A model generated the notes under the pieces. It was given only the letters and a program-made list of their open reading frames with translations. It was not told where the DNA came from and did not search any database. A program made the translations under genes and the position numbers. DNA of 64,000 bases from a virus (taxonomy: Duplodnaviria > Heunggongvirae > Uroviricota > Caudoviricetes). The stretch lies in the IMG/VR virus record IMGVR_UViG_3300028422_001686. One strand, 5' to 3'. Each line of letters opens with the position of its first letter. Within the stretch, counting starts at the first letter, position 1. Positions 7,831-55,399 of the stretch are shown here, one piece after another.

Positions 7831-8061
7831 CTACATAAACCCTAGAGCGCTTTCTGCAGTTAAAACTCTAGTAGCCCCTCTTATTTCTGTCTCGGTCTTA
7901 CTTTTAGGAATATCTGGGTGTTCAAAAATTTTCCCTAAAATTTTAATTGTTCCGACCTCTGTCACATAACCCTCAGCCCCTATGATGTCACCATAAATTG
8001 ATGACAGTTCTGGGTGCCAATCTGGCCTATGATATACTTCTACTTTATCTGTTGTACTCAT
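7831..8061 (-). CDS. Small baseplate-cluster protein, 76 aa
   Basis: Tightly packed ORF overlapping the end of the hub gene. Confidence 0.5.
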   Translation of the reverse strand: MSTTDKVEVYHRPDWHPELSSIYGDIIGAEGYVTEVGTIKILGKIFEHPDIPKSKTETEIRGATRVLTAESALGFM

Positions 8062-11000
8062 TCATCACCTTTTCTAGGGCCGAGTTTAGTTCAACCCCAT
8101 TAGACAATTCATTTACTATATCTGCAGATGTAACCTTCTTGTTCTTTTTAACTACTTCATTCCAAGCAGCATCTCTAATTTTTTCTTTATCTTTAATATC
8201 ATTTACAATATATCTTTCTTTATCTTCTTTTGAAACTAAGTCTGGAAGAAATTCATCGGAAATAAAATTAGTAATGGCCTTTACGTCTCCAAGAATCTCT
8301 TTTCCAAAAGTAGATACAGCGTCCATGGCAGTATTATTTCTAAAGCCATATAGGCCAGTATACCATGGTTTACCTTTTCTTATTAGTGGCATAAAGCCAA
8401 TGGGTTGCCTAAATTCACACCAATTTGTAATTGGACCAGAAACGTAACTTGCAATAAAGTCAGCACCAAAAATACCAGCAACTTTCCCTACCATACCTGC
8501 CATACCTTTTAAAGCAGGAACAGCCGCACTTGCTGTGGTTAACAGAACTTTTGAGAGAGTTCCTCCAGCAGTAGACATACCAGCAAAGTATGGCGCAGCC
8601 GCTTTTACTCCAGCTCCTAATATAGCCACATTGGCTAAGGTTGACGCTGTTGATAATGCAGAGCTAGTTCCACTCAATGCTCCAGTTAAAGCTCCAGGTA
8701 AAACTTGATCGTTACCTTGATTATATCTTATATCAAATTCTCTCTGACTAGCAAAAGTTGAATAAAATCTAAGATTGTTCCTGATAAAAACAGATGCTAT
8801 ATGTTTTTCTATAGCCTTTATCAACATTCCCTCTGTTGCCTCTGATGGAAAGACAATCATTCTAGGTGTAATTTCTGTTAACCAGCCCTTCTCTGGAGTT
8901 AGTGTTTGAACTACATCTCCAGCTTTAATCGACCCATAGATCCCATTATAGTTATCGTAAATAAACACCACATCTTCAGGTTTAATATTACTTCTTCCTA
9001 GAATTACTAGTTTTCCTGTATATGCTTTTTTTAGTGAATTACATAACGTAGATACTGCATATTTTTGTGGCATATATGGATCGTAGTCTTTGTGTGCGTT
9101 ATGATAAAGGACAGTTTTCTTCTTTATAAAGTTCTTGTTTAAATCATCATCTGCCTTTATATCTCCAGACTTTTCATATGAAGAAAATCCTTCTGATCCA
9201 TCTGCATTAATATTAGACCCCGTATCTGGATGAACAACCTCAATATTATTATATACGTCATCTGTATTTGTCATAATTTCATTCAAGACTATATCGTGCT
9301 CGCTAGTAACAAGATGGTAGTTTCTGAATGGCTTTATACAATCTTTTATATTTGTAATATCTCCTTCAGATGAGTCTGTCTTTAAAGACTTCTTGCTTCT
9401 TCTATCTGACATATCTCCGTATAGGTTCTCAAATATCTGCCTATTTGTATCTTCGTAGAGTGTACCATTGTTATCATTGATTGCCGATAAATAGTTAATG
9501 CCACGGTAGAAGTAAAGCTGGTCTGGGTATCCAAAAAATAACGTGCTTCTATTGTCATAGGGGACGACCCTGCAGATAGTCCCAGGGTGTCTTAATGTTA
9601 ATTCTTGAAGAACATCCCAGATAGTTTGTTCATAAATAACGAAACGTGATCCTTTTATATAATCCTTTATCATTCCTGCAGCTACTGCTGCGCCACCAAT
9701 TAAAAGTATAGGCGTGGCTGTTAAACCTACCGCAACACCAATCGCTCCTGCTACTAATGATGCTGTAGTTCCTAGCCCAATGCCTTTAGCGAAGGATCCA
9801 ACTGTACTGCTTACCCACTCTTTACTGCCTACATCTTTTATGGAGGGAGCAAAGATATTATCCATCATTGGACTACTATCATATCCAAGAAAATTTCCAG
9901 TAAATGGGGCGACATTTCCTAGTACATTTTTCTCTTTTCTTCCGAAGTTCTTTAGTTCTTCAGCACCTAAGAGCAAATCCCCAATTATCTTAGTCGTATT
10001 CTTTCCAGAGAAAGTATACTCTTCCTCTACTCCAACACCTTTTAATTCCTGAACAAGTTCAATTCCATCACCAACGCACACTATCTCTATAACGTCTCCG
10101 CCCCCTACTTTAACGACTCTTCCAGAAAACTCTACACTCAGCTTGTTAGGATTAACATCATATCCTAATCTTAACTGAACCTTAGTTCCTTCTGTAAAGA
10201 TTAGTCCATCACGAGGGTCAGAATTTACTTCTTTCTTTTTATCTTCTTCTTTCTTATTTAGCTCATCGATAGTCTTTGTTTTATCACTATAATAGGATCC
10301 TAAAATATCGTCAGATGTATTTGTCATTCTAATTATAAGTGTTGGTGCTGGACCATCTTCAGGTACAGGCATACGGATATCTACAATAGAGTTTAGGTCA
10401 TAAAAGTCAGCAAAAGATTTCCATAAAGAGGACTGTCCCTTTAACCTTCTACTATGCATATCTCCAAAACTTAGAATACTAGTACTTGTTGCCGGTTCCA
10501 TAAAATACAGCTTAAAGGTTGGCATAGACCTTCTCATTGTATAAGTCGTGTCTGTAAAGTTTTCAATAGATGACCTTAAGACAAAATTTTGTTGATTTGG
10601 ATCTAAAGGCATTTGAACTAACATGTTACCTAGGTCGGTGTCTTTTTTTGCAGCTGCTTCATTGGAAGCAAAAGGCGTCATTAGTGGAGATATCTGCATC
10701 TGAGATGTCGGTTTTAATTTTGCCGTATCAGAAATTACGCTATTGTAATAATTATCAAACACCTCTTGATATTTTTTAGATATACTATTTTGTGCAGAAT
10801 TTACATCTTCCTTATACTCATCATCTTGGTTGTAGTAATAGTAGTCTGGCTGTTCATACTTTCCACTATCATTTTTTGGTAGAAGTAGGTCAGGATAACA
10901 CGAGTCATCAACTACATAGTTATACTGTTTAATATCACTACTGCAACAGGTGTATGGATTTTCCTTTCCAGTTTTATTTTCAGTCTTTATTGATCTAAAA

Positions 11001-12619
11001 AGAAGATCTTGGCCAAAAGAATTAGCAAACTCTCTACACAAAAGAGTCCTATTAGAAAGGTTTATTCTTTCCGTAGACAACTCTTCTAGCTGAGACTCTA
11101 CCCAATCCCTACTTTTTTCAAAAATACCTTGCTCAATGGCTTCATCAATAGTACCTATTCCTAGTGGAGAAGTATTCATTAGCGCGGTGCCTAATGCTTT
11201 TGCGTCTAATTGATCAGGGTAGTTATCTTTAGCTTTACTATACTGAACTGATTTTCCATTCATCTTTATGTTATATCTATCTGAACAAATTTTCATTGCA
11301 GAAAGAATAGAGTTGTTTAGTTCAGAGACAGATCCTTTACCTTCAACCCCAAGTGTTGGATTTGAAGAGACAAGGCTCTCACTTAATTTCACATTAAAAT
11401 TAGAACAAAATGGAAGCCCTGGTATTGTTGTAGACTCCTGACCTTCTATCATGCAACTTAAACATTCATTTGGATCAAAAATACCAGAAGTATTATTTCC
11501 CATATCTACATATGTTTCTTTTGTAGTGTCTGAATAGATTTTATATTTAAGGATACTAATAAGTGGATGACGGATATAAATATTAGAAGATTTTTCCTTA
11601 TCCCTGTAGACCACACTATTCCTGTTAACAGTTTCTAGTGCGTTATTTAGAAGCTCCAGTTCTTCCGATGTCTCTACTGGTTTCTCTCCATCTAACTTTG
11701 CATTAGCAAAAAAAGACAAATTTAAGTCTGTTGTTGAGCCTCCTAAGAATTGAAAAGTAGGAGTTGTATGTCCCTGTAAGGGAATCTTTGCAATATTCAT
11801 TTTTATAGAAGCAGCTAAACTTCTAAGTAATAGGGCGCTTGATTTTATAGTATGTGTTTTTGGAACTAGTATTCTTCTATATCTGTAAGCATAGGCGTTG
11901 CCACTATTATCTCTATCTACACTCCACCCTTGTTTCCACAGCTTTGTTTCACTGTCTGTATCTCCAAGACTTGTATATAGTTTTTCTTCTGGTAGATATT
12001 CTTTAAAAAAAATCTCCATATCATCTGATAGAGTCTCTTTTATTTCATTAATATATCTCCCATCCAGGTAAGTTCCATTTTTAACATACTCATCAAACAA
12101 CCTTCCTGGCTTCTTTGATGGGATGCTTGCTCCATTTGGAGAGAGTTCTTTATAATAAAAGTTTGAAGAATATGGATAGTAATTAAAATAGCTCATTGTC
12201 AATCTAACTGAGATCATCTCAGGTGATTGTGAGTCGAATTGTATATCTACACCATTAACAGCAAAGGCGAGAGAAGACCCTTCTCCGATATTATTACCAA
12301 GAGAGGCTCTTGTTTCTTTTTCTATTTTTTCATTTTCGACATAAACGAATGGGTTTTTTCTTATTTGGATAAGCAAAGGAGCTAGTTGTGAGTTTATCCA
12401 TGAGGTAACTGTCTGCTCTCTTTTAGATAAATAATTTATACCTGTTGCAAACCTTAGGTCAACAAAAACAACAATATCCCTTTTACCTGATTTAACTTTT
12501 GTTGCAATCTGTGAACGAAGAGAAAAGGCACCCGTATTGTAATCATCCTTAACAATCTGGATTCTTTCTGGAGGTATTTCAAAAGTAATATTGTTTATAG
12601 TCAGTAGTGATGAGCTCAT
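8045..12619 (-). CDS. Large baseplate hub protein (gp27/GpD-like domain plus extra domains), 1524 aa
   Basis: GTKVQLRLGYDVNPNKLSVEFSGRVVKV fits the hub v.i.lGY...F.G.V pattern; position after the tape-measure locus. Confidence 0.6.
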   Translation of the reverse strand: MSSSLLTINNITFEIPPERIQIVKDDYNTGAFSLRSQIATKVKSGKRDIVVFVDLRFATGINYLSKREQTVTSWINSQLAPLLIQIRKNPFVYVENEKIEKETRASLGNNIGEGSSLAFAVNGVDIQFDSQSPEMISVRLTMSYFNYYPYSSNFYYKELSPNGASIPSKKPGRLFDEYVKNGTYLDGRYINEIKETLSDDMEIFFKEYLPEEKLYTSLGDTDSETKLWKQGWSVDRDNSGNAYAYRYRRILVPKTHTIKSSALLLRSLAASIKMNIAKIPLQGHTTPTFQFLGGSTTDLNLSFFANAKLDGEKPVETSEELELLNNALETVNRNSVVYRDKEKSSNIYIRHPLISILKYKIYSDTTKETYVDMGNNTSGIFDPNECLSCMIEGQESTTIPGLPFCSNFNVKLSESLVSSNPTLGVEGKGSVSELNNSILSAMKICSDRYNIKMNGKSVQYSKAKDNYPDQLDAKALGTALMNTSPLGIGTIDEAIEQGIFEKSRDWVESQLEELSTERINLSNRTLLCREFANSFGQDLLFRSIKTENKTGKENPYTCCSSDIKQYNYVVDDSCYPDLLLPKNDSGKYEQPDYYYYNQDDEYKEDVNSAQNSISKKYQEVFDNYYNSVISDTAKLKPTSQMQISPLMTPFASNEAAAKKDTDLGNMLVQMPLDPNQQNFVLRSSIENFTDTTYTMRRSMPTFKLYFMEPATSTSILSFGDMHSRRLKGQSSLWKSFADFYDLNSIVDIRMPVPEDGPAPTLIIRMTNTSDDILGSYYSDKTKTIDELNKKEEDKKKEVNSDPRDGLIFTEGTKVQLRLGYDVNPNKLSVEFSGRVVKVGGGDVIEIVCVGDGIELVQELKGVGVEEEYTFSGKNTTKIIGDLLLGAEELKNFGRKEKNVLGNVAPFTGNFLGYDSSPMMDNIFAPSIKDVGSKEWVSSTVGSFAKGIGLGTTASLVAGAIGVAVGLTATPILLIGGAAVAAGMIKDYIKGSRFVIYEQTIWDVLQELTLRHPGTICRVVPYDNRSTLFFGYPDQLYFYRGINYLSAINDNNGTLYEDTNRQIFENLYGDMSDRRSKKSLKTDSSEGDITNIKDCIKPFRNYHLVTSEHDIVLNEIMTNTDDVYNNIEVVHPDTGSNINADGSEGFSSYEKSGDIKADDDLNKNFIKKKTVLYHNAHKDYDPYMPQKYAVSTLCNSLKKAYTGKLVILGRSNIKPEDVVFIYDNYNGIYGSIKAGDVVQTLTPEKGWLTEITPRMIVFPSEATEGMLIKAIEKHIASVFIRNNLRFYSTFASQREFDIRYNQGNDQVLPGALTGALSGTSSALSTASTLANVAILGAGVKAAAPYFAGMSTAGGTLSKVLLTTASAAVPALKGMAGMVGKVAGIFGADFIASYVSGPITNWCEFRQPIGFMPLIRKGKPWYTGLYGFRNNTAMDAVSTFGKEILGDVKAITNFISDEFLPDLVSKEDKERYIVNDIKDKEKIRDAAWNEVVKKNKKVTSADIVNELSNGVELNSALEKVMNEYNR

Positions 12620-15600
12620 TAGTAACCCTTTTTAATTAAATCATCTATAGTATATTTTGACATCGATGATCTGTCATCTACTATTCTAACTCTGGTGTCT
12701 CCCTTGTTTGACATTTTTGTGATAGCAGAACTCTCTTTAGCTCCACCCTTAATAGATATTCTTTTCTTTTCCATTTTAGGTAAATCAAAGACAGTTTTTG
12801 GGTGAGATACAGTGTTTTGTTCTTGTTGAAGCTCATGGTCTCTACCTGTATCTTTTACTACCTCTAGTGTTTTTGCATCTGAATCTGTAAGAGTTGCAGC
12901 AAGACCTATCGCAGCAGCAGGAAGGACACCCCACTTCATGAAACGTGTATTTAACTTTTTAAAGACTTTTCCGGCAGAGTCTTTCATGTTCTGAACTCTT
13001 CCTAATACAGTGGGTTTAACTCTACCTTCTTCAAACATTTTTCTAGAGAAGCCTATAACATCATCTATATTCTCGTCATGAGATCCTATCATTCCCTTAA
13101 AGACTTCATCCGAAGTTATTGAAGCATAATATTCTGCTGTTTTAGAATTAAAACCTTTCCCGACAGACTCAATAATATCAGAAATCTCTTCTACTCTTCC
13201 GCCTTTCCAAGACCTCAATCTAGTCCCAATCTCGGTCCCTGTTTCTCCAAAAACAAGTTTATCAAAAGACCCTCTCATGGCCTCCATTCTTTTATTTACT
13301 GAAAGGTTCTTATTTCTTAATGTATCTAGAATATAATCTGCCTCGTTATTTAATAATGCCGAAGTACTTTGATGTTTTGCCTTTAAGATATTTTCTACGA
13401 ATAAGTGGGAGAGGTTTTCTGTCTTTGCTGCTAGATCTGGACTCATTCCACTCATAACATCCTTAGCCACACCAATGTGAATAGCTTTAAACTCATTTGA
13501 AAAGGATCCGATTGCGCCTTTTTCAAGGTATCTTGCAGAAAGATTTGTTTTTACAGTATCAGACAAGGACATAGATAGAACATCTCTTGGAGCCTTATTT
13601 TTGATAGTAAAAGAAGACATTCTTTTTTGTGCTTCCCAGTAGCTTCTAGACATCTGGGTTTGTTGATTAATAAACCTCTTTATTTCCTCTGATGCATCTG
13701 CTCCTTTAACCATATGTAAGTGCAGGGGGTCTCTGTCAAAGTCGACACCAATCCCTTTTCTAAATAATGACTTTTCTTGTTGGGCCCCAGAAAGATAAAT
13801 CTGATTAGGATCTACATCTTTTGAAAACTCTTCTGCAATTCTGATTTGTGTTGGAACTGATGTGGTGAAGCTTTCAGAAGGCTCCCTAGTCAATATCCCA
13901 TACAGGTCACCCCTCCTCGCTCTTTCAAGACCTTCTTCACCCAGTCTCTCTAATATCTTCTTCTCAGAAACAGCTACAACTGGACCAATAGAGTCATCTA
14001 GATGTCCTGCTGCTTTGGCCAGATCTCTACCAGCCTGATCTAGTCCAGGAAGTGATGAGGACGCTTTTCCGTAAACACTTGTGGAAATTTTAGAACTATA
14101 GAGGTTTGCCTCTGCTGTTTTTATGGCTTCTGCATGAGCTGACAAAAACTTTTCTTTTAAAGTATTTATTCTATCTGTACCTTCACCTTTCATTGCTGCA
14201 GTCAGTAGGTCTTTTGTCGCTCTATCTAGTTTTGCTAAAGATTTTTCTGAACCAATTTGTTTTCCTGTCATGTTAGACAGTGCTTCCTCAGAATAAACTG
14301 GAACCCTACTCAGCCCAGGGATTCTGCCTCCGACATCGACATTTAAAATATTTTTTCCTGTATACTCTAACCTCTTGGTTAAGTCTTGATCAAAAAGGTT
14401 CCTCATTGAAAGTGATTCAATAGATGGCCCAACCATTTTGCTATCTCTCATGGCAGATTCACCCTGTAACAGAGTTGACATCGCCTTATGTATATCTGTT
14501 GCCCCTGCGCGATTTCCATAAATATCAGATAGAGTTTCATTAAGCCCCATTGTAGATATATTTAAAGCAGCTCTTTCTGATAAGGTCCCAAGTCCACCAA
14601 ACCCCATCTGACTAAGATGATAGTCACCAGACGCCATATGTCTGAATAAGGCACCAGAGGCATATTCTTCGCCAACTGCTTTAGTAAGTGATCCTTCTTT
14701 TTCTACAGCCAGCTTAAGTGTATTGATAACTTCTGTGTTAGAAATACTTCCTGCATACTTCCCTTCTACCACACCTAGTCTTTTTAATTCTTCAGGTGTA
14801 GCTCCTGCAGCCTCTAGCTTGTTCACATATGACATATAGGCAGAACTTAGATCACGAGAACTTAATGCATCCTTTGTTCCAATAACTTCATCAACTGCAA
14901 TAGAATGAACACTGCTAAACATTCCTTTTATTTCAGACTTTATTAATTCTTTTTCTGTTGCCAGTCTATCTCTTACTCCAGAAACTTTCTGCCACTCCAT
15001 CTGCTCTAAAATACTTTCTGTCGGAGCTAAAGCCTTTACTACAGGCTTCCCTTTTCCTCCAGTAAAAAACTTTGTTCCAGACTCGATACCATAGTCTGAT
15101 TCCATCTGTATTTTTATCTTTCCATCAATGATAGAAACATTTCTAATTTTATCTTTTACTCCACGTCTAACTTTAAACTTAACTTGATTTCCATTTTCGG
15201 CAATAGCAAGAGATTTATTTTCCATAAAAGTCTTGAGCTCTAAATCTGCAGCCTCTCTTTTTGCAACCATTGAAGCCCAATGCTGTTTTAGCATTTCTGC
15301 CTCTTCAGTTTTTACGCTCCTAGTATAGGTCTTAAAAGCCTCCCTCTCACTTCTTCTATAGGTACTTCTTTTGTCTCTTAATGACCCTATAAGATCTAAG
15401 TCTGTATCAACTCCACCGGGTCTAGCCATGGCAGTAAATAGATCGTCTCTATTCATTCCTGTCGCTAACTCTAAATTTTTAAACATTATTTCAGAGCCTA
15501 TAGTCCCCGCATCTTTTACCTTGAAACTATAAGTATTCATATTGTTTTTAATGCGAACACCTCTTGCTAATCTTTGATTAAAAAGGATTTCTTCATCAGC

Positions 15601-16722
15601 GATTTCACCATAATCCTTCCCCATTAATGAAAGGACGTTTTCTAAGTCTGACTTCTCTGAGACAACGAATGTATTCATCTGTCCAATAGTATCAGAAAGC
15701 TCTCCTCCCCACTTTATGGGAGAATGTAGTCCAGATATTTGACTTTGTCTTACAAGCTGATATGATGATGAAGAGATCTCCGCTCCTGGTAGCCCAGAGG
15801 AGATTACCGATTCTGGAAGATTGACTACTCCTGCTGCCATTTGAGAGGCTGAACCTCCAGCCATTCCTGGGATTCTCTGCATTATATCTTTAGTCTTTAA
15901 AAGCCTTCCTTGTGTGCCAAGATCACTAAATGGATCTACAACAGCTTGATTAGCTCTCATCTTTGCTAAAGCTGGATTCTTTTGAGCTGAATCAAAAAAG
16001 ATTCCGGTAGAGTCTTCATATAGGGCAGCCTTCATTCCTGTATCTAATATCTCTTTTGGGGTCGTTTTGCCAGCAATGATCTGAGATAAGGAGTCTCTGT
16101 ATCTCTTAACTAAAGAGACATCTATTCCTTCTACTGCACCGGTTGCTGAGTCTGACAACACTGACCTTACAACATAACCTCTACCTAGATCTTTCCCTAA
16201 GGCCACCTTTCCTTCACCGGAAATTAAAGGAATATCAAACTTTTGCTTCTGCCCATCAATCAATGCCTGAACGGTAACGCCTCTAACATCAGAACCTTTC
16301 ATTCTCCCTATAAACTCTAGAGATCCTCTATCTGCGATACTTTCTAATCTTTCAGAGAAAGATGTTAGTTCTTGCATAAAAGCAGCTGATCTGCCACTAT
16401 AACCACTATAACTCCCCAAGCTTTGATTTAAAGAATTCAATGACCCAAAGGTTTTTGATTCCACAAACCTTCCTGCAGGATTAAAATTGCTTAAAAAAGA
16501 TGTAAAGTCTTGTGACGCAGACGTCGCTACGGAAGATACTTGTTTTGAGAATGATCCTGCTGCAGCTAAATTTTTAGATAAACTATGGTTCCTAAAAGGA
16601 TTTTTATTGATGCTCTCTCTGGCTGTAACATAGGCAGATGCTAATCCACCTGCAACTAATGCTCCACGCCCCATTACTGATGCCCAGTCATGCTTATCTT
16701 TAAATTCTATGTTTTCAATCAT
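12619..16722 (-). CDS. Putative virion-associated single-chain two-barrel RNA polymerase, 1367 aa
   Basis: In order: YGEIADEEILFNQR (cf. beta GYNFEDSILVSER), GTKFFTGGKGKPVV with K551/K559 eight apart (cf. beta GDKMAGRHGNKGVI), GILTREP (cf. beta' LNRAP), GVDFDRDPLHLH (cf. NADFDGDQMAVH). Confidence 0.7.
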   Translation of the reverse strand: MIENIEFKDKHDWASVMGRGALVAGGLASAYVTARESINKNPFRNHSLSKNLAAAGSFSKQVSSVATSASQDFTSFLSNFNPAGRFVESKTFGSLNSLNQSLGSYSGYSGRSAAFMQELTSFSERLESIADRGSLEFIGRMKGSDVRGVTVQALIDGQKQKFDIPLISGEGKVALGKDLGRGYVVRSVLSDSATGAVEGIDVSLVKRYRDSLSQIIAGKTTPKEILDTGMKAALYEDSTGIFFDSAQKNPALAKMRANQAVVDPFSDLGTQGRLLKTKDIMQRIPGMAGGSASQMAAGVVNLPESVISSGLPGAEISSSSYQLVRQSQISGLHSPIKWGGELSDTIGQMNTFVVSEKSDLENVLSLMGKDYGEIADEEILFNQRLARGVRIKNNMNTYSFKVKDAGTIGSEIMFKNLELATGMNRDDLFTAMARPGGVDTDLDLIGSLRDKRSTYRRSEREAFKTYTRSVKTEEAEMLKQHWASMVAKREAADLELKTFMENKSLAIAENGNQVKFKVRRGVKDKIRNVSIIDGKIKIQMESDYGIESGTKFFTGGKGKPVVKALAPTESILEQMEWQKVSGVRDRLATEKELIKSEIKGMFSSVHSIAVDEVIGTKDALSSRDLSSAYMSYVNKLEAAGATPEELKRLGVVEGKYAGSISNTEVINTLKLAVEKEGSLTKAVGEEYASGALFRHMASGDYHLSQMGFGGLGTLSERAALNISTMGLNETLSDIYGNRAGATDIHKAMSTLLQGESAMRDSKMVGPSIESLSMRNLFDQDLTKRLEYTGKNILNVDVGGRIPGLSRVPVYSEEALSNMTGKQIGSEKSLAKLDRATKDLLTAAMKGEGTDRINTLKEKFLSAHAEAIKTAEANLYSSKISTSVYGKASSSLPGLDQAGRDLAKAAGHLDDSIGPVVAVSEKKILERLGEEGLERARRGDLYGILTREPSESFTTSVPTQIRIAEEFSKDVDPNQIYLSGAQQEKSLFRKGIGVDFDRDPLHLHMVKGADASEEIKRFINQQTQMSRSYWEAQKRMSSFTIKNKAPRDVLSMSLSDTVKTNLSARYLEKGAIGSFSNEFKAIHIGVAKDVMSGMSPDLAAKTENLSHLFVENILKAKHQSTSALLNNEADYILDTLRNKNLSVNKRMEAMRGSFDKLVFGETGTEIGTRLRSWKGGRVEEISDIIESVGKGFNSKTAEYYASITSDEVFKGMIGSHDENIDDVIGFSRKMFEEGRVKPTVLGRVQNMKDSAGKVFKKLNTRFMKWGVLPAAAIGLAATLTDSDAKTLEVVKDTGRDHELQQEQNTVSHPKTVFDLPKMEKKRISIKGGAKESSAITKMSNKGDTRVRIVDDRSSMSKYTIDDLIKKGY

Positions 16723-19700
16723 GATAATCTCTTAAGGTCACGGAGGTAGCTTTTTACTTCTTCCTCTCTTGATTGACTTAGGTCTAAACTCGTAGAGTCC
16801 TTCTCTGAATTATATACTGTAATTGTAGGGTTTTCAATACCCATAGATCTTGCGTCCTTGTAAATATCAAGCATATCTGTTTCAACAGGAGCTGCAGCAG
16901 TCTCCATTAACTCATCGAGAGCTTGCTTAACATACGGTTTTCTTTCTAGTAAGTTAACCCTGTCTTCCCACAAATCATATTCGTGAAAGTCTCTACCTGT
17001 GTCGACCAGATATTGAAGTTGGATATCATCCATTTTTATTCTTGGGTCCCATCCAAGCCAATCATCTTTCGGTAATATGCTGGATGTCGTAGCCTCTAAA
17101 GCCCTAGAACTTCTCTCGTTAATTAAAAGGCTTTTTCTAGTTTCTATTTCTTTAATTTCTTTACTTCGACCTTCACTCTCTTCTTGAAGGCTTAGCTCTT
17201 CAAGTCTCTTTCTGTCCCATTGTGCAACATATATTTCTGCCATTTCTGGTGAAGTAAGTGAAAGAATCTCTCCTTTCTCTTCTTCTGTAGCGTCTAAAAA
17301 TCTTTCAAAATATGGTTTTTCATGTTTGGGTATAATGTATTTTAGGTTTTCTCTGTCAGAGTATGGATCAACTCCAGTCATGGTTCTTCTAGACATGAAG
17401 TTAAACTTATTTGCGGAACGCTTATCTCCAGATGCGATAGCCTCTTGTTCAAGTTTTTTATATTTTGCATATTCTAGTCTATCAAAAGCATTTAATATCT
17501 TTTCTCTCTCACTCTTTTCAGTTAGCTCTACACCATCAGCCACATCTTGAGCTGCTAAAGCAACTGCTGGTGCCGCAAAACTCTCTATTGGACTCATCCA
17601 ATCCCTAAAACTTTTAGAGACTTTTTCTCTTCTATATTCACTTACTGCAGAATAAGAAGGAAGAAAGGATGAAGCAGGAGAGAATGGAGTTAGCCTATCA
17701 ATTGGGTTAGATTTTAATGTTTCAGTAAAAACCTTTGCATATGTTCCAATGAAGCTGTCATCAGCCTCCAAGAACTCCTTTTTCTCTAGCTTAGACTCTA
17801 GCTGTTTATTTATTGTATCAACCGCATTCTTTTCCTCTTCAGACAATGCTGTTTTAAATATCTCATTTCTTGTATCTCTAAATTCATGTGAGTACGGAGC
17901 TAGGTCCGCCAAAATTCGATACCTATGTACTAGCGAATATTCTTCTGGATCAACCCCTTTAACATCTTTAAATCGAGAAGCATAACCTTCTCCTGGTAGT
18001 CGATATCCTGCATCTAGAATTCTATGATAAGGTGACCCCTCTTGAAAGTTAGTAAAGTACTCTTCACCTGGCATCCAAGATGGCATAGTATTTCTTATCT
18101 CATTTATCCTTTGCTCGAAATAAGATTCATGACCAAGAAGACGTCTGTATCCTTCTGTTAACCCAGCTGCACCACCTAGGTTTAAATCTGCATACTGTCT
18201 TCTTATTCCAAATAAGTCCTTAGATCTTTGAAGGTATGGTTCTCCCAAAAATAAGTCATGAGACCCTGTTAATCTCTCTTTCATTGTTTTGGCTGCAAGA
18301 CCCCTAAGACCTGCTGCTTCAGTAATGGCATCCCATGTCCGATGCATATACCCTTTAAACGAATATGGGTTGACTGGAGCAGGTGCACCAATTCCACCTA
18401 ATTCCTCAACTGGAGCTATTTTTGGATTCTCAGTTATTCGGTCTTTACTCCACTGATCCGTATGCATATATGCAGGTGGTTTAATAACCCTTCCAACAGT
18501 AGCCTCATAAAGAGTTGACAACATACCAAATCCAGCACCAGAACTACCTGCTACAGGGAAGGGACTAGTGTTGTACGTCTTCTCTTCTTTCCAGTAGGGA
18601 TTAACAAAACTTTTATATGCCTCTTCAAACGGATTAACTTCTATTGAGGGATCTAACTTACTGTCAGGCTTATCAATTAGTCTTCGATACCAGTTAGGTC
18701 TGTAGTACATAATCTGGCCACCCTTAAATGGGCCAGCATTAAACTCCCACCATCTACCCTTTCTAATTGCAACGTCTTTCTCTCCACTGTACTCTTTTTT
18801 TAATTCATCATAACTTTCACTAGAACCTATTCCAGTAAGTAAGAATGGGAGAGCTAGGGCCGCCCCTATTGTTGCACCAACAATAGAACCTCTTTTTAGT
18901 AGTCCATATTCTTTTTTATAAAGATCTAATGGTATCTTTTTAAACACCCCAGGTAGACTCTTTGTTTCCTGTAGGTTTTTTGCTAGAATCCTACCTCCAT
19001 CGCCAGAAGAGAATTCTTTTGCTGCTCCGTAAGAAGCTGCAGCAAAAAAGCCAGTTAATGCACCACTAAATGCACCGCCTGCAAAAGGCAAAATCCCGGT
19101 TGACCCTGGAGCAGATTCTTCTACGCTTCTTCTTAAAGAAGTTAACCCTAGGATGTCAGAGGTCTTTGCATATGATAAGTGTCCAGCCTTGACTACCTCT
19201 GCAGCGGCTCCAATAAGACCTGATTCACCAATTGCGGTTCCTTCTTCTCCTAAAGACTTAACCATCCAGTTTGCTGCACCTAAGGCAAAACCACCAAGTA
19301 CAACCTTTGGAAACAAATTCATAGCATGAGCTTTAGTTAATCCAAAAAGATTCTGTTCTAAAGCCTTAGCGTTTCCCACACCTAGTGATGGAAAAAAGGA
19401 ACCTAGTTTTTGTGCGGCAGATGTTATCCTTGGTGAGATATCAGGAACAACTTCTTCTAGTGCCCATGCTGGATTATCTAAAAGCTTTAAGTACTTAGTT
19501 AGTGTTTCATGTGCATAGGCACTACCAAATCGTAATGCTTTTGATACCCTGCTATTTCCTCCAGTAACAAGATATTCATATCTTTTTGGAAGGACTTTTC
19601 CTCCAACGTCTAATTCATATGACCTCGTAAACTGAGATAAACTTGCACCAAATTCTGTTACATTTCTTCTTGGAAGAAGGCCTGCATTTTTTAATAGAAG

Positions 19701-21521
19701 AGTTTCTTTTCCTGAATATGTAAGACCATATAGCTTACCTTCTCTGAACTCAATGGAATGGATTCCGCTAGAGAGAAGATCTTTTCTTTTTGTCAGAGAC
19801 TCTATGTATTTTCTGTATGTCTCTGAGCCTTTTTCAGAAATACTATATTTAATTCTAGCAGAAGAATAGACATTTTCTGCAAACATATTCGAGATACCAA
19901 AAACTCGAGGCATCCCTTTCGCCGATGCTTCTAATCTTTTAGCTCCTGAATATAGAATGTCACTAAGGTTGGCTTTTTTTCTTCCAAAGAAACTAGATGG
20001 ATTCTCTACTCCTAGATATTTTAATGAATTAATATCAATGTTGGTTTTCGGATTCCAAGCGTATAGACCACCTGAAACACCCAGTGTACCGATGCCATAT
20101 AGCATACTCGGGTTTATTTTATTTGAATCAAGTCTTTCTTCTGCTTGGCGATATGAATATGTTTGAGATTTAAAACCAGAGCCAAAATCAGACCGACTAT
20201 TTCTTGTCTTACCATACCATCCATGTCTTAACCCTTCTGTATGGAGGTAGTTATCATCCCTTCCAGAAAAGCGTGAGGCGGCTGCACCAAAAATAGCCGT
20301 TGCCCCTACAATGCCAGCAAGAACTCGCTTGTCTTTTATTTTTGAGAACAACTTCTGTTTTGTTCCATCTGTCCCCTGTTTATATAACTTAAAGGCCTTG
20401 TCTACAATCTCTTCTTGAGATATACCAAAGTCTACAATTCTTGCTCCTTGTGAAGAAGCTCCATATAGACTAAATCTCCCCCTCCCTGCAAGAGCATCAA
20501 TTAATTCTTTTTCTGTCCTTACGGCAAGTGTTCCAGACCTTACAAGATGCTTACCTGTTTCTTTTATTGATTCTAAACCTGAAGCGATAGCTCTTGCTTG
20601 AGCTTCTACTTTTAGGTTTAGAGCATTTCTATTCCATTCTTTAGCCCACTTAGCAACATCTTTATTCTTAGCTAAAAATGATTTTACATCTAAATTTGGA
20701 TTTCTTAATGCCTCTAGCCTTTTTACTAGAACTGGAGTTAGCTTATTTTGAATGTCTACATCTTGTACAGCAATATGCCTTTCAGTTTCTCCAACAAAAA
20801 ATTTAGATAAAAAATCTACACTTGTTCCAAGAGCAAGATCTCCTGTTGCAGGAATCAACCCTCTTTTTTGACCAAGAGCATTTAGCGTTTTAGCTATCTC
20901 CATGGAGTCAATAAGTGCTCCACCTTTTCTTGCTTCTTTTCTTATGAGAAGATATCTAGATAGTTGTCTCTCTATATCTTGAGCTCTTGCCTGGGCTGCA
21001 CTTAAGCTCCCAGCTGCAACTTTTCTAGCATCAATGGATCTTTCAGAAGCTTGCTCTGAAACCATTTTCATATACTCTGGAGAAAAAGATACTGGTAGAG
21101 ATGAGAAATTAGATGTTGAGAAGTGCCTTAACTCAAATGGGGCATTATGAATAATAATATTTTTGCCTCTATACCCAGGGGCAGTGAGAATTGACTTGGC
21201 GATACTAGAGGCCTTGTCTTCCTGCAGTACAGAGGAGAAGATTTTCCTTCCACCATAATCAGTAAAGGACTTAAAGTTTGAGGCAATATTTAAATTTGTT
21301 CCTGTCTCTCTATAATAGTCTCTAAGGCCACCGGCCCTTTTATGGAAAGATGAAAACGGTGAATTGTTATCAGTAAATAGGTTTAATTCAAAACGTCTAT
21401 TAGATGGAGTCTGAATACCTAGTTGAAGGATAGACTTCTTTTCTGGAGTAATAGTTCTAGACTCAATATCGAGACCGAATTGATTCTCAAAGAATGAGTG
21501 AATTGGCTGCTTCTTTGCCAT
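16719..21521 (-). CDS. Tape-measure-position protein with N-terminal DEDDh 3'-5' exonuclease domain, 1600 aa
   Basis: Follows the tail chaperones; Gly/Ala-rich helical body with hydrophobic segments. N-terminus has LDIE (D18,E20), IIHNAPFE (H125-E130), IDSMEIAK and HIAVQD (H249,D254). Confidence 0.7.
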   Translation of the reverse strand: MAKKQPIHSFFENQFGLDIESRTITPEKKSILQLGIQTPSNRRFELNLFTDNNSPFSSFHKRAGGLRDYYRETGTNLNIASNFKSFTDYGGRKIFSSVLQEDKASSIAKSILTAPGYRGKNIIIHNAPFELRHFSTSNFSSLPVSFSPEYMKMVSEQASERSIDARKVAAGSLSAAQARAQDIERQLSRYLLIRKEARKGGALIDSMEIAKTLNALGQKRGLIPATGDLALGTSVDFLSKFFVGETERHIAVQDVDIQNKLTPVLVKRLEALRNPNLDVKSFLAKNKDVAKWAKEWNRNALNLKVEAQARAIASGLESIKETGKHLVRSGTLAVRTEKELIDALAGRGRFSLYGASSQGARIVDFGISQEEIVDKAFKLYKQGTDGTKQKLFSKIKDKRVLAGIVGATAIFGAAASRFSGRDDNYLHTEGLRHGWYGKTRNSRSDFGSGFKSQTYSYRQAEERLDSNKINPSMLYGIGTLGVSGGLYAWNPKTNIDINSLKYLGVENPSSFFGRKKANLSDILYSGAKRLEASAKGMPRVFGISNMFAENVYSSARIKYSISEKGSETYRKYIESLTKRKDLLSSGIHSIEFREGKLYGLTYSGKETLLLKNAGLLPRRNVTEFGASLSQFTRSYELDVGGKVLPKRYEYLVTGGNSRVSKALRFGSAYAHETLTKYLKLLDNPAWALEEVVPDISPRITSAAQKLGSFFPSLGVGNAKALEQNLFGLTKAHAMNLFPKVVLGGFALGAANWMVKSLGEEGTAIGESGLIGAAAEVVKAGHLSYAKTSDILGLTSLRRSVEESAPGSTGILPFAGGAFSGALTGFFAAASYGAAKEFSSGDGGRILAKNLQETKSLPGVFKKIPLDLYKKEYGLLKRGSIVGATIGAALALPFLLTGIGSSESYDELKKEYSGEKDVAIRKGRWWEFNAGPFKGGQIMYYRPNWYRRLIDKPDSKLDPSIEVNPFEEAYKSFVNPYWKEEKTYNTSPFPVAGSSGAGFGMLSTLYEATVGRVIKPPAYMHTDQWSKDRITENPKIAPVEELGGIGAPAPVNPYSFKGYMHRTWDAITEAAGLRGLAAKTMKERLTGSHDLFLGEPYLQRSKDLFGIRRQYADLNLGGAAGLTEGYRRLLGHESYFEQRINEIRNTMPSWMPGEEYFTNFQEGSPYHRILDAGYRLPGEGYASRFKDVKGVDPEEYSLVHRYRILADLAPYSHEFRDTRNEIFKTALSEEEKNAVDTINKQLESKLEKKEFLEADDSFIGTYAKVFTETLKSNPIDRLTPFSPASSFLPSYSAVSEYRREKVSKSFRDWMSPIESFAAPAVALAAQDVADGVELTEKSEREKILNAFDRLEYAKYKKLEQEAIASGDKRSANKFNFMSRRTMTGVDPYSDRENLKYIIPKHEKPYFERFLDATEEEKGEILSLTSPEMAEIYVAQWDRKRLEELSLQEESEGRSKEIKEIETRKSLLINERSSRALEATTSSILPKDDWLGWDPRIKMDDIQLQYLVDTGRDFHEYDLWEDRVNLLERKPYVKQALDELMETAAAPVETDMLDIYKDARSMGIENPTITVYNSEKDSTSLDLSQSREEEVKSYLRDLKRLS

Positions 21522-21528
21522 CTAAAAC

Positions 21529-22104
21529 CTACATATTGTCTTGTGAATTAATTTTCTCTATATCCAAGATAGATGTATATTCATCAAGTCTTTTTAAAAC
21601 CTGTGATGAATCATCTTTTTTCTTTGAAAGATCTAATTGTTTTCCTGTAACATATTCTGCTTGAGCCAATCTTTCTAGCATCGTATTCCAGGGCATTCTT
21701 TCTATATCTTCTATTGTATATGATGGAAAGACTTTTGCAATAACAGCACTAATCTGTTTTTTTGCATTACTAGTTACATCATCACGAGCTATAGCTAGTG
21801 TTTCAAAGAAGTCATTTTCATCTTTTGGCGTAGATAATTCTAATACAACTTTAGCTAGAACAGTTATGGTTCCAGCTAATAGATCTTCATGGTGATAGTC
21901 GAATGAATGCTCAATTACACATTCATCCCATATCTCGTCTTCAATATCACACTCAAGTTCTGGATAGTAACTTAAAACATATCTATAAGACTCTGCTACT
22001 GAAAAAGGAAGGACCTTAAATAAGATCCTTCCTCTACTTGAAGCATACAGGTATAGCTTATCTAAGTCATCCCTTAATGTGGTAAAGGTCTTTGACTTTG
22101 ACAT
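21529..22104 (-). CDS. Tail assembly chaperone (second), 191 aa
   Basis: Position before the tape-measure locus; FPSYTIEDIERMPWNTMLERL resembles the C-terminal chaperone helix pattern. Confidence 0.55.
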   Translation of the reverse strand: MSKSKTFTTLRDDLDKLYLYASSRGRILFKVLPFSVAESYRYVLSYYPELECDIEDEIWDECVIEHSFDYHHEDLLAGTITVLAKVVLELSTPKDENDFFETLAIARDDVTSNAKKQISAVIAKVFPSYTIEDIERMPWNTMLERLAQAEYVTGKQLDLSKKKDDSSQVLKRLDEYTSILDIEKINSQDNM

Positions 22105-22110: not shown

Positions 22111-22641
22111 CTACAGTTTTCTTACAAGAGATGCGGCATATTCCACTGGCATAAAGTTTGATGCTGTAAGGATATCATCTTTTAATGCAGTAGCAATTCC
22201 TGCATCAAGGCCACCAATAATATCTGGAGTTAGCTTCGGCCATAGAACACCTTTCTGCACAATAGCTTCTTCTTTTTTTTCTTCGTCTAATTTTGCAATG
22301 GCTTTCATTAAGTTTCGCCATTCTTGACGTCTCAATCCTCTAAAGATATAATTCTTTTTTTCACCAAAAGAAGTAAAATAAACTTCGCCAACTTTACTTT
22401 TTAATTCTTCGATTTGGGCTTCTGAAGGCTTATTGTCTAACTTGTTGAACATATCCATAATAGGATCAACTTCTGCCATTTTTTCCTGTACACGGAAATA
22501 AATCTCTCTTTCTTCAGGTGTAAGATCCTTTAGTTCTTCTGGAATCATCTCTTGTGCTGCTTCTACACCAAACTCTTCCTCGTCATCTAGGTTAAAATCT
22601 TCCATAGAAAATTCTTCTGTTGATTGATCATCTGCTAACAT
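22111..22641 (-). CDS. Tail assembly chaperone, 176 aa
   Basis: Acidic N-terminus, YIFRGLRRQEWRNL, IVQKGVLWP; lies between tube genes and tape-measure locus. Confidence 0.6.
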   Translation of the reverse strand: MLADDQSTEEFSMEDFNLDDEEEFGVEAAQEMIPEELKDLTPEEREIYFRVQEKMAEVDPIMDMFNKLDNKPSEAQIEELKSKVGEVYFTSFGEKKNYIFRGLRRQEWRNLMKAIAKLDEEKKEEAIVQKGVLWPKLTPDIIGGLDAGIATALKDDILTASNFMPVEYAASLVRKL

Positions 22642-22655: not shown

Positions 22656-23261
22656 TTATTTTATTTTTCTAGCTATAAAAGAATAAGTTTCGTGAACAGG
22701 AACACCAGAGACATTTATTGTTTTCCCTTTTCCAATTATCTCAACGTCCTGAATCGTTTCTTTTACAGCACTATCTGCATTGTAACCATACCCTATTTTA
22801 ATGTTAAATGGTATATGGTTAAAAAAGTTTTCATCACTCTGCACACTTGTCCCCTTAAGTGTATTATCAAACTTCTTAATTTGATTTTCTTTAAAGGCTT
22901 TTGGGTTTGTATATTTTAAAGCCTTGCTTAAATTTGTTCTATTATCATCACTAAAAGTTTCAGAATTTTTATTTGGGTCACTTGATTTATTTTTGCCTAA
23001 ATTTAATGTGTTCCTACTTTTATAGATCTCAATAATAAGCCAGAGATAATTAGGTTCCCTGAAATTGATATCAAAAGATCCCTGAACTATGTGAGTTCCT
23101 TTTGCTAAAAAATCATAGTACTCTGACCCATACCCATATATAGGTGTTTTATTTGCTGACTCAGTATAGTCTATTCTATCTATATCATCAACCCATATAT
23201 CTCCTATATATAGAGAGACTTGTGATCCAGAGAAATATTCGCCATTAATCTCTACGCTCAT
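22656..23261 (-). CDS. Tail tube-fold protein (tube initiator-like paralog), 201 aa
   Basis: YFSGSQVSLY...IDYTESANKTPIYGYG...KGTHIVQGSF parallels the tube protein 24301..24915. Confidence 0.7.
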   Translation of the reverse strand: MSVEINGEYFSGSQVSLYIGDIWVDDIDRIDYTESANKTPIYGYGSEYYDFLAKGTHIVQGSFDINFREPNYLWLIIEIYKSRNTLNLGKNKSSDPNKNSETFSDDNRTNLSKALKYTNPKAFKENQIKKFDNTLKGTSVQSDENFFNHIPFNIKIGYGYNADSAVKETIQDVEIIGKGKTINVSGVPVHETYSFIARKIK

Positions 23262-24214
23262 TAATACAATCCCCTTGAGTTTTGTAGGTATTTTTGTACT
23301 AAATTTTTATCTAATAGTTCGGTGCTAGCTTCAAGTCTACTTGCACGAGTAGTACTGTCGGTATACCTTGAACTTTTTTCCTTTACATTTTTAATGGACT
23401 TTGCTAGTCCTTCTAGCATTTCTGCTTGTGATGAAAACGTCCCTCCAATGTTTACCAAAGGAAGAACAGTCTCCGCATAATAGTTAACTGAGTTATATAA
23501 AACCGGTCTATCTACAGAGATCTCTTGTCCTTCGGTATTTATATCTACATTAATAACGTGCATCACTGAATATTGACCATACTCATTTGCGAATACAAGG
23601 GCAAGGTTAAAAGGTTTTAACTGATCTAAATGAGACATCATTGCTTGAGCATGAGATGTAGCTTCTTTTGAAGAGCTTTTCATTGCAGCATCATTCCCGA
23701 ATAGTCGGATAAACTGAAATAGTTGTGATTCTTCTATTGTATTAAAGACCATAGATCCGGCGACAGTTCTCGCTCCCCTGGTATAGGCTTTTGAGTGAGA
23801 TCTTCCAAGTGTTCTAACAGCATTTTTTTCCCTGAAAGAAGAGTAGCTAAAGGTATGTAAGTTTCCAAGATTGTAGACATTCTCTTGAAAGGACTCTTTG
23901 TTTTTGTTTCCATCAATATCAGAAATGTAATCTGCTCCAGCCGAATATTCTCCTCTGCCAAGCGCAGACTGTTCTTGTGTAAGGAGGCCTGTTCCATCAG
24001 TTCCTATCGACGGAAAACCCCCTATACTTGATTCTGACTGGAGCCTCGTCTTGTTTATGATATTACCATATATATTAAGTGAACTTCTCAGCTCTTCTTG
24101 ATCTTTTTTTCTTTGATCATTAAGTCTTTTTCTTGCATTATCTAAATTGTAATATGCATAGACAGATACATCGGTTCCTGAAAATGTAGTCATTGGCATA
24201 GCTGGTACAGACAT
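23261..24214 (-). CDS. Tail tube-fold protein (paralog with insertion), 317 aa
   Basis: FSGTDVSVY...FSYSSFREKNAVRTLGRSHSKAYTRGARTVAGSMVFN aligns by eye to YSGVDITP...ISYAVNREKAAVYTMGKADPRAFSRGKRAIAGSLIF of the tube. Confidence 0.75.
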   Translation of the reverse strand: MSVPAMPMTTFSGTDVSVYAYYNLDNARKRLNDQRKKDQEELRSSLNIYGNIINKTRLQSESSIGGFPSIGTDGTGLLTQEQSALGRGEYSAGADYISDIDGNKNKESFQENVYNLGNLHTFSYSSFREKNAVRTLGRSHSKAYTRGARTVAGSMVFNTIEESQLFQFIRLFGNDAAMKSSSKEATSHAQAMMSHLDQLKPFNLALVFANEYGQYSVMHVINVDINTEGQEISVDRPVLYNSVNYYAETVLPLVNIGGTFSSQAEMLEGLAKSIKNVKEKSSRYTDSTTRASRLEASTELLDKNLVQKYLQNSRGLY

Positions 24215-24224
24215 TTAAGCTCCT

Positions 24225-24260
24225 AAAAACAGAAAAGGAGAGAGGTTTTACCCTCTCTCC
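24225..24260 (-). terminator. Intrinsic terminator after tail tube gene
   Basis: GGAGAGAGG (24237-45) / CCTCTCTCC (24252-60) 9-bp stem with a T-rich tail on the minus strand. Confidence 0.8.
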
Positions 24261-24300
24261 CAATAATAGTAATCTATTAAGCTTTTTATTGCAAGACTTA

Positions 24301-24915
24301 TTAGTTTTCTATACTTTGTTTGATCTCTTTAAGGCGATCAGAACTAGTAGCGTCATACTCCCATCCTGTTAAAGCTCTTGCTACAAAGCTATATGCTTGC
24401 TCAGTCACAAGATCATCGATAGAAACACCTGAATTTTCATTCAATACTTCTACACCATAGATCTTCATAATTGACTGTGCTCCATATTCGTTTGCAGCAG
24501 CAAGAACGATATCAAATGGAGGAATCTGATCAGCATACCATGGAGTCGATGTCACCTGATTAAAATCAGATGAAGCAGCATTAACTCCTACTGCAGCCTC
24601 AGAATCAAAAAGGCTGTCGGCACTTACACCACTTCTACTTCCAAGACCTGTCTCATCCTTGTCAGCAGAGAACATTGAATTTTTAAAACGATCCAATAGA
24701 GCATGTCTATCAAAAACAATAAAAATCAATGACCCAGCAATCGCTCTTTTCCCTCTTGAGAAAGCGCGAGGATCAGCTTTACCCATTGTGTAAACAGCTG
24801 CTTTTTCTCTGTTTACAGCATAAGAGATAGCTTGAATCTCTCCAATAGGTTGACCTTGAAAAATAGGAGTAATATCTACACCACTGTAATTGTTATAACT
24901 TCTGTAGTTTGACAT
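24301..24915 (-). CDS. Major tail tube protein, 204 aa
   Basis: Directly after the sheath, followed by a terminator; tube-type motifs such as IPPFDIVLAAANEYG. Confidence 0.8.
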   Translation of the reverse strand: MSNYRSYNNYSGVDITPIFQGQPIGEIQAISYAVNREKAAVYTMGKADPRAFSRGKRAIAGSLIFIVFDRHALLDRFKNSMFSADKDETGLGSRSGVSADSLFDSEAAVGVNAASSDFNQVTSTPWYADQIPPFDIVLAAANEYGAQSIMKIYGVEVLNENSGVSIDDLVTEQAYSFVARALTGWEYDATSSDRLKEIKQSIEN

Positions 24916-55206: not shown

Positions 55207-55399
55207 TTTTTATCCCCTTTTATAAGAAGTGTTTTTAGGTAATTGTAACATATTGTATTTATATAAGTAAAGTAGAGTGTAAGAAATGAATAAATAAAGT
55301 AAGTATAAATGTTAGTAATTCCTCTTATAGGGGGCGTTTTTTTGAAAAAAATAAAAATTCAACTTTTTGTTTTTAAGGTTTTTGGATTTAGAGAGAAGT

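Follow-up and report, generated by a model that had tools for sequence, protein, structure and literature searches.

Tape-measure slot of an uncultured contractile-tailed phage occupied by a candidate two-barrel RNA polymerase and a giant protein with a predicted N-terminal exonuclease

By packaging an RNA polymerase in the virion, some phages free themselves from the host transcription machinery and from its interference; to our knowledge, the P23-45 group of Thermus siphoviruses is the only one for which experiments have demonstrated a tail-associated RNA polymerase (RNAP) of the two-barrel superfamily. Whether a contractile-tailed phage might also deliver such an enzyme through its tail is the question raised by two giant genes of the uncultured phage in IMG/VR virus record IMGVR_UViG_3300028422_001686. 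The complete genome is 188,132 bp long (G+C 34.5%; terminal repeats of 144 bp by our own count); the part analyzed here, called the window, is a stretch of 64,000 nucleotides corresponding to genome bases 23109–87108, and coordinates are window positions unless given otherwise. An initial annotation read the two genes, P0001 and P0002, as encoding an exonuclease-bearing protein and an RNAP that are ejected together. A predicted RNAP and an exonuclease-headed giant in the tape-measure slot do suggest that the phage probably injects its own transcription enzyme. Both open reading frames (ORFs), and the short ATGA overlap reported between these minus-strand genes, were confirmed in the sequence, and their main features are as follows.

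16719–21521, minus strand: P0001, a giant protein of 1600 amino acids (aa) (ORF and translation)
20472–21521, minus strand: DnaQ-like DEDDh 3'-5' exonuclease domain of P0001, residues about 1–350, with a helical insertion (AlphaFold2 model and fold search)
18828–20324, minus strand: four hydrophobic, Gly/Ala-rich, transmembrane-like segments of P0001, residues 400–418, 736–754, 810–828 and 880–898 (Kyte-Doolittle scan)
16719–16722, minus strand: ATGA stop/start overlap, the TGA of P0001 with the ATG of P0002 (sequence read)
12619–16722, minus strand: P0002, 1367 aa, candidate single-chain two-barrel RNAP with hydrophobic helices on either side (ORF and translation)
13018–16245, minus strand: predicted RNAP core of P0002, residues 160–1235, a beta-like half followed by a beta'-like half (AlphaFold2 model and fold searches)
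15046–15072, minus strand: beta-type barrel signature K551-F-F-T-G-G-K-G-K559, with two invariant lysines (alignment of 36)
13729–13887, minus strand: beta'-type barrel signature R946-E-P-x-E950 ... D994-F-D-R-D998, with the Mg-binding triad (alignments)
12622–12942, minus strand: C-terminal hydrophobic helix of P0002 (residues 1261–1279) and a conserved tail ending K/R-G-Y (hydrophobicity scan and alignment)

Conventional sequence searches say little about P0002. Neither the protein nor its family profiles gave a significant match in Pfam, PHROGs or the PDB sequences (phmmer and hmmsearch); nothing in Pfam was found at E ≤ 0.1, so that P0002 does not fall into PF05183 (RdRP), the YonO/QDE-1 family, and tblastn of P0002 and P0041 against 50,697 phage records found no match. 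The sole RNAP among the results was Rpc1, at E = 1.9 over the metal-loop region, and matches described as "DDDDK" were set aside as enterokinase-tag artifacts. Being invisible to Pfam and PHROGs, members of the family would come out of annotation pipelines as hypothetical or minor tail proteins.

An exhaustive profile search of 1.84 billion proteins recovered 54 representatives of the family at E ≤ 0.001. They form a closed set with no named RNAP among them, and nearly all full-length members are 1350–1600 aa long. The weakest, P0058, lacks all of the motifs and matches unrelated coiled-coil proteins, and is considered a false positive; it was left in alignment A3, which comprises 36 members with 13–34% identity to P0002. 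In A3, K551, K559, P948, D996, S1075 and E1110 are invariant, and the nearly invariant positions include R946, E947, E950, D994 and D998; all three aspartates (D994, D996, D998) are invariant in a 35-member sub-alignment of homologs with an identity of only about 20–40%. The family motifs, K-F-F-x-G-G-K-G-K and T-R-E-P-x-E ... V-D-F-D-R-D, are the defining catalytic signatures of the two-barrel superfamily as summarized in PMC7824862. They are kept in homologs down to about 20% identity, and distant members have GDFDGD, GDYDGD or GDHDGD at the triad, like cellular beta' subunits and QDE-1. The hydrophobic helices on both sides of the core are conserved in the family as well.

The confidence of the AlphaFold2 model for residues 160–1300 (pLDDT 83.8, pTM 0.82) points to a compact globular enzyme rather than an extended ruler. 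Its top Foldseek matches in the PDB are RNAP beta' chains, along with the AR9 non-virion RNAP, Pol I and QDE-1 (best E = 9e-5), and a second look at these matches gave Z scores of 11–12.7 to beta', Rpb1 and NRPD1 over model residues 597–1080. An unbiased fold search, independent of Foldseek and covering 48,161 chains, included the matches below, whose Z scores are middling by the tool's own calibration.

Human Pol I A190: Z 11.3, 356 residues aligned, first rank
Maize RDR2 (ZmRDR2): Z 11.0, 433 residues aligned, model residues 24–1074
QDE-1: Z 10.7, 419 residues aligned, model residues 24–1069
Beta-type subunits (Pol I A135, plastid PEP): Z 9.1, model residues 1–550
P74-26 gp62 (P23-45-group non-virion RNAP): Z 8.8, 358 residues aligned, model residues 89–1065

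The RDR2 and QDE-1 alignments cover both barrels of P0002, whereas the beta-type subunits match only its N-terminal half. The model therefore combines beta-like and beta'-like double-psi beta-barrel halves in one chain, as in the two-barrel superfamily; the sequence has the DxDxD triad of that superfamily (D994-F-D996-R-D998, after the R-E-P-x-E strand), and K551 and K559 can be taken as its basic residues, their assignment to the active site being by motif analogy. In the viral structure collection BFVD the model retrieved a crAss-type "RdRP" (E = 1.5e-5), RNAP subunits of nucleocytoplasmic large DNA viruses, and both halves of a protein of Acinetobacter phage ME3, taken as ME3_36 (E = 4.4e-10 and 9e-3). 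With each half matching the proper subunit type, single-chain enzymes matching both halves, both catalytic motifs conserved and viral RNAPs returned from BFVD, the case is a strong one: P0002 is very probably a sequence-cryptic, single-chain two-barrel RNAP with predicted activity, and this part of the initial annotation held up in structure prediction and fold searches. The P0002 fold was also seen in BFVD in a 1423-aa "Minor tail protein" of Siphoviridae sp. ctnpt50 (E = 1.8e-11), in a protein of Microcystis phage MaMV-DC (E = 3.9e-7) and in a second ME3 protein of 798 aa (A0A172Q0S6; E = 4e-3, probability 1.0). Judging from such models, ME3 may encode a pair of two-barrel RNAPs, and one may also be present in myovirus cyanophages.

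The partner protein, P0001, shares its N-terminal 460 residues with six homologs of about 1600 aa. The AlphaFold2 model of this part has an overall pLDDT of 71, with values mostly between 75 and 96 over residues 1–350, and in the unbiased fold search all of the top 50 rows were DEDD exonucleases, in agreement with Foldseek; the alignment to Pol III epsilon has Z 12.5 and an rmsd of 2.8 Å over 157 of 174 residues. The model thus has the RNase H-like exonuclease fold of the DEDDh class. Residues D18, E20, N126, E130, H249 and D254 are invariant in the N-terminal alignment, among them the catalytic residues of ExoI (D18, E20) and ExoIII (H249, D254), and the motifs DxE, NxxFE and Hx4D are present in 11 of 11 sequences, distant loci included. 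That P0001 bears an exonuclease domain, as first proposed, is borne out by structure prediction and fold search. The domain resembles known DEDDh exonucleases (Pol III epsilon, TREX1, RNase T, REXO2) in its fold (Z 12–13) and in its ExoI DxE, ExoII N-x-x-F-acidic and ExoIII H-x4-D motifs, and differs from them in the glutamate for aspartate in ExoII, in a helical insertion of about 70 residues, and in belonging to a tail module, where it is fused to a virion-type protein of 1250 residues that bears membrane segments. The N-terminus found no match among the PDB sequences.

The remainder of P0001 links it to virion proteins. In tblastn against the phage collection, residues 627–1416 match ME3_35 (E = 2e-45) and gp145 of Bacillus phage 0305phi8-36 (E = 3e-14); gp145 and gp146 are virion proteins by mass spectrometry, according to the GenBank record. 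By this homology P0001 is a virion-type giant protein. An Atlas search with residues 430–1600 returned nothing informative.

The position of the pair follows from its neighbors, which identify the window as the tail module of an uncultured contractile-tailed phage (myovirus) of the 0305phi8-36/ME3 lineage, as far as homology and gene order can tell.

24928–26982, minus strand: tail sheath (phrog_16991, E = 9e-67)
22656–24915, minus strand: three tube-like paralogs (PHROG scan)
22111–22641, minus strand: tail-chaperone candidate, 176 aa (ME3_33 "putative tail chaperonin", E = 2e-15)
21529–22104, minus strand: second tail-chaperone candidate, 191 aa (weakly similar to ME3_34, E = 0.018)
at 12619, minus strand: TAATG, in which the stop codon TAA of P0002 shares one base with the ATG of hub P0003 (sequence read)
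8045–12619, minus strand: baseplate hub P0003, 1524 aa (BLASTP to ME3_37 "baseplate hub protein", E = 5e-33; phrog_20474, E = 5e-45)
5618–6844: baseplate wedge protein (PHROG scan)

Homology to ME3_33 on one side (E = 2e-15) and ME3_37 on the other (E = 5e-33) places the pair after the tail chaperones and before the hub, and the initial annotation was correct on this point. From the sheath through tubes, chaperones, P0001 and P0002 to the hub, the gene order equals that annotated in ME3 and 0305phi8-36; P0001 and P0002 thus occupy the slot that normally holds the tape-measure gene, and the ATGA and TAATG overlaps make P0001, P0002 and P0003 one tightly coupled unit. A crAss-like podovirus, which the three giant ORFs might have suggested, is ruled out by the sheath, tube and baseplate matches. 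The hub itself is strongly hydrophobic at residues 956–988 and 1320–1346 and has no recognizable lysozyme or peptidoglycan-binding Pfam domain, while the hubs of relatives carry GH108 and PG_binding_3. A complex prediction for the C-terminal 90 residues of P0002 with residues 1–400 of P0003 scored 0.01, which is uninformative either way.

Conservation of the arrangement was surveyed by looking up the contigs of six P0002 homologs that span the diversity of the family (57–209 kb; earlier pattern scans of IMG/VR had given 0 and then 3 loci). The homologs are syntenic in all six, a point on which the initial annotation had staked its case. In every contig the P0002 homolog starts 4 nt before the end of the upstream gene, and this recurrence argues that the ATGA-type overlap is not due to chance. 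The upstream giants are 1820–2410 aa long where complete, one being cut off by the end of its locus, and the P0002 homolog is followed in all six by a hub-sized gene (1435–2030 aa), sometimes past an inserted NUMOD/HNH-like ORF. Chaperone-sized and tube-sized genes lie upstream in all five contigs that reach far enough. The exonuclease domain was found in all four upstream giants that were translated (hmmsearch E = 1e-48 to 1e-141), two of which also have a staphylococcal-nuclease domain (SNase, PF00565); in other relatives it is the hub that carries SNase, and this tail module seems to be a repeated carrier of nuclease domains. From the recurring synteny, overlap and exonuclease domain, the enzyme pair can be regarded as a conserved module of the P0001/P0002 clade. 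The homing-endonuclease-like ORFs between RNAP and hub genes are at L011:14311-14784 and L015:14548-15030, and a faint intein match was seen in one upstream giant of 2410 aa; the giant and hub loci behind the SNase and intein remarks are L011:15106-20979, L016:4062-10004 and L017:4113-10004.

ME3 and 0305phi8-36 have the same slot order of chaperonins, first giant, second giant and hub (gp35/gp36 and gp145/gp146, respectively), but ME3_35 and gp145, the homologs of P0001, have no exonuclease domain. For the second giant, BLASTP of P0002 against ME3_36 and gp146 was not significant, and only profile-profile comparison worked: the P0002 and ME3_36 families align over the catalytic barrel and the following helices with a probability of 97.4% (hhalign, E = 1.1e-11). 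The ME3_36 family has the motifs R-E-P-A-Q-G ... G-D-H-D-Q-D and K-F-F-S-V-G-S-K. ME3_36 is annotated merely as hypothetical, and tblastn with it against the same 50,697 phage records found only itself. The gp146 protein of 0305phi8-36 is longer, at 2537 aa, and has no DxDxD motif; it was assigned as the tape measure mainly from a correlation with tail length (Hardies et al., PMC2147016).

The initial annotation had further proposed a tape-measure role divided between the two giants, and nothing was found in support of this. Neither P0001 nor P0002 has a tape-measure match in Pfam or PHROGs, and PF10145 matches nothing genome-wide. An RNAP and a long ruler in one polypeptide, as in gp96 of P23-45, is not what is seen here: P0002 has 1367 aa, of which about 1070 make up the globular core, and since it is compact and globular with only about 290 residues outside the polymerase it is not a ruler. 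If anything in the pair measures, the approximately 1100 residues of P0001 outside the modeled part (residues 470–1600) may be a better candidate for the tail ruler than P0002.

The closest known parallel is gp96 of P23-45 (also in P74-26, G20c and TSP4), a virion two-barrel RNAP fused to the tape measure (Chaban et al., 2024, PMC10770324). Like gp96, P0002 is sequence-cryptic, has the DxDxD triad, is associated with hydrophobic or membrane segments, and comes from a gene in the tail module's tape-measure slot, between the tail chaperones and the tip or hub, a position kept in the six contigs; in both cases a second, non-virion two-barrel RNAP, here a candidate, is encoded elsewhere in the genome. 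The differences are as clear. P23-45 is a siphovirus in which the RNAP is the N-terminal ~1200 residues of a 5002-residue tape measure, whereas here the tail is contractile and P0002 is a separate protein of 1367 aa without a ruler part, coupled to a separate exonuclease-bearing giant. For gp96, presence in the virion and activity are proven, whereas P0002 is known from genes and models. No sequence relation between them is detectable, and gp96 is absent among the fold matches listed for P0002, where its relative P74-26 gp62 appears at Z 8.8. In general architecture P0002 resembles the QDE-1/RDR2/YonO clade, which provides its best whole-length structural matches: the beta-like barrel precedes the beta'-like one in a single chain, and the peripheral domains of cellular RNAPs have no clear counterpart. 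The crAss-like enzyme phi14:2 gp66 is reported to be packaged in the virion and to have a DFDxD loop (10.1101/2020.03.07.982082); that phage is a podovirus, and the gene for its enzyme does not sit in a chaperone-to-hub tape-measure slot as that of P0002 does.

The initial annotation had also ventured that the arrangement was new for a contractile-tailed phage, and this stands in part. The literature searched contained no description of a contractile-tailed phage with an RNAP, or with an exonuclease-bearing protein, in its tape-measure slot, so the enzyme content of the pair is undescribed there for contractile-tailed phages. What is not new is the pair of giants as such, known by position from the 0305phi8-36 lineage (gp145 and the "hypothetical TMP" gp146, PMC2147016), nor a virion RNAP fused to a tape measure, known from the siphovirus P23-45 (PMC10770324). 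Two published RNAP surveys give no hint of the family: the one on jumbo phages (PMC7824862) names 0305phi8-36 and c-st as the only phages outside group 1 that have an RNAP, with no others in its group 3, and the supplementary files of the P23-45 paper (PMC10770324) have no entry for "Acinetobacter" or "ME3".

If P0002 acts early, other transcription machinery and likely targets in the genome become relevant. The genome has no match to sigma70 region 2 (sigma70_r2) or to PF05183 RdRP at E ≤ 1, and a search with the A3 HMM found no P0002 paralog. About 5 kb past the right end of the window, a 937-aa plus-strand ORF (L004:1-2814, genome 92187–95000) has the motifs R-D-P ... M-D-S-D-G-D and K-G-K-G. 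Its nearest language-model (Atlas) neighbors are phage clusters with PF05183 RdRP (scores 0.84), and Atlas's own low-quality model of it matches RNAPs only; it has no match in Pfam, in PDB sequences, in the ME3 or 0305phi8-36 genomes, or in phage BLAST. L004 is a likely candidate for a non-virion RNAP of the YonO/orf99 kind, and together with the tail-slot RNAP it suggests, by analogy with P23-45, a cascade from a virion RNAP to a non-virion one. P23-45 likewise has a polymerase in the tail slot and another among its early or middle genes (PMC10770324).

The two divergent arms of the genome meet at 55.2–55.6 kb. The initial annotation had described a C-poor arm beyond 55.3 kb, and this is real: at genome 78–87 kb the coding strand of the plus arm has about 9.5–10% C and a GC skew of +0.31 to +0.42. 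The depletion is graded and was followed to genome 179 kb: by genome 168–177 kb, near where the arms converge, the skew has fallen to +0.06 to +0.08, and the minus arm, read along the strand that codes there, reaches only +0.1 to +0.2. Mutational skew linked to replication or transcription would also be consistent with a gradient that reverses at both arm junctions. Sigma-70-like sites are not enriched in 55.0–64.0 kb (37 found, 46.6 ± 7.8 expected); this count does not decide who transcribes the early arm. Among the sequencing runs that contain the window no RNA run is listed; the DNA runs include a hydrothermal-vent metagenome, the probable source sample. Exactly two copies of the 13-mer AGGTACCGGGGGT are present in the 188-kb genome, at 55400–55412 and 55522–55534. 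Both fall within the divergent intergenic region of 350 bp (55207–55556) that immediately precedes the first gene of the plus arm, and the 13-mer is a candidate promoter, operator or origin element.

The best explanation of the locus, to which we would give a probability of about 0.6, is that P0001 and P0002 join the tail or hub during assembly and are later ejected, and that the RNAP starts host-independent transcription. In such a scheme both proteins would leave the virion on sheath contraction; their hydrophobic segments might help to form a trans-envelope channel or anchor at it, as has been proposed for tape measures and gp96; P0002 would begin transcribing the entering DNA without the host enzyme and may then switch on the second RNAP, L004; and the exonuclease would act on nucleic-acid ends, either preparing single-stranded template or attacking host nucleic acids. 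A broader version, in which the whole lineage of large contractile-tailed phages, including ME3, has replaced or supplemented its tape measure with a tail-delivered enzyme cassette, and in which exonuclease and RNAP are co-injected in the present clade, the former resecting DNA to a single-stranded template and the latter activating the second RNAP, is tentative and rather doubtful as a whole.

Several observations weigh against ejection of an active polymerase. As P0002 has no sequence match to RNAP families, its identification rests on predicted structure, middling Z scores and motifs, and at the fourth position of the triad its close relatives have R or K, not G. In the ExoII motif of P0001, N126 is kept but E130 replaces the consensus aspartate in all 11 sequences, a conservative change. 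The resemblance of P0002 to gp146, verified in the virion by mass spectrometry, is weak and confined to the last ~55 residues (hhalign E = 7e-4, probability 27%), and a profile comparison of the ME3_36 family (A5) with gp146 found no detectable similarity. The stretch of gp146 that is P0002-like does end in R-G-Y, as does the tail conserved through the P0002 family, and this C-terminal tail is the only part that Hardies et al. (PMC2147016) could align among gp146 homologs. The initial annotation had P0002 transcribing the C-poor early arm, and here support was not forthcoming: k-mer counts in 54 plus-arm intergenic gaps gave no shared promoter motif, only AT-rich words. Finally, the globular core of ~1070 residues could not sit folded in a typical tail-tube lumen, and P0002 would need to be stored unfolded or have a place in the hub or head; RNAP storage and passage are also unresolved for P23-45, by its authors' own statement (PMC10770324).

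Some of these features would equally suit an RNAP that is active but not packaged, made late from the tail operon and never ejected, with a role inside the cell such as late transcription. The core is globular, and packaging of P0002 is deduced from its position and from the homology of P0001 to gp145; in 0305phi8-36 the two-barrel YonO/RdRP-like RNAP (orf99) lies outside the structural module (PMC2147016, PMC7824862), and a putative gene-expression role has been proposed for it (PMC2147016). Such a role for P0002 appears unlikely, though, given that its gene is embedded and translationally coupled between a virion-protein homolog and the hub in all six contigs, that its conserved terminal hydrophobic helices and C-terminal tail resemble the slot protein gp146, and that L004, in the plus-strand arm, already provides a separate non-virion RNAP candidate. 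The R or K at the fourth triad position in near relatives, along with the lack of sequence similarity to active RNAPs, could instead mean that P0002 is a structural or ejection protein with an RNAP-derived fold that makes no RNA: a DNA-binding pilot, a plug or a translocation device, its acidic loop binding only metal or DNA. This is improbable when the three aspartates, the two lysines and the R-E-P-x-E strand are conserved in homologs of 20% identity and the fold search recovers both barrels, as conservation of both halves of the active site leads one to expect catalysis rather than a scaffold.

It is also conceivable that P0002 works as QDE-1 and RDR2 do, on single-stranded or RNA templates, making primers or double-stranded RNA for replication or for interference with the host, from substrate made by the exonuclease. 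RDR2 (Z 11.0) and QDE-1 (Z 10.7) are indeed its best whole-protein structural matches, across both barrels, and the 3'-5' exonuclease partner is conserved. DNA-dependent Pol I, Pol II and beta' have Z scores equal to these within error, however, and P23-45 gp96 and gp64 (PMC10770324) and phi14:2 gp66 (10.1101/2020.03.07.982082) are reported to transcribe phage DNA, which makes a specialization of this kind quite improbable. Ejection of the pair with P0002 as a DNA-transcribing enzyme remains the preferred reading.

On that reading, the idea embodied in P23-45 recurs in a sequence-unrelated family, in a contractile tail module, apart from any ruler and with a conserved exonuclease partner. Under the broader version above, were it true, there would be no earlier case of a virion RNAP delivered through a contractile tail, nor of a nuclease and a polymerase ejected as a pair. 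Ejection would in turn raise the questions of how a globular enzyme of ~120 kDa passes through, or is stored in, a contractile tail, what sets tail length in this lineage, and what a co-injected 3'-5' exonuclease does. The remote homolog in the cultured Acinetobacter phage ME3 offers an entry point at the bench.

Elsewhere in its genome the phage also encodes a DNA Pol III alpha and a primase-helicase fusion, and the same set of loci (L003, L005, L007, L008 and L009, genome 103–167 kb) includes a GroEL-type chaperonin, a CUB-domain subtilase and a Ro60/TROVE protein with a vWA domain.

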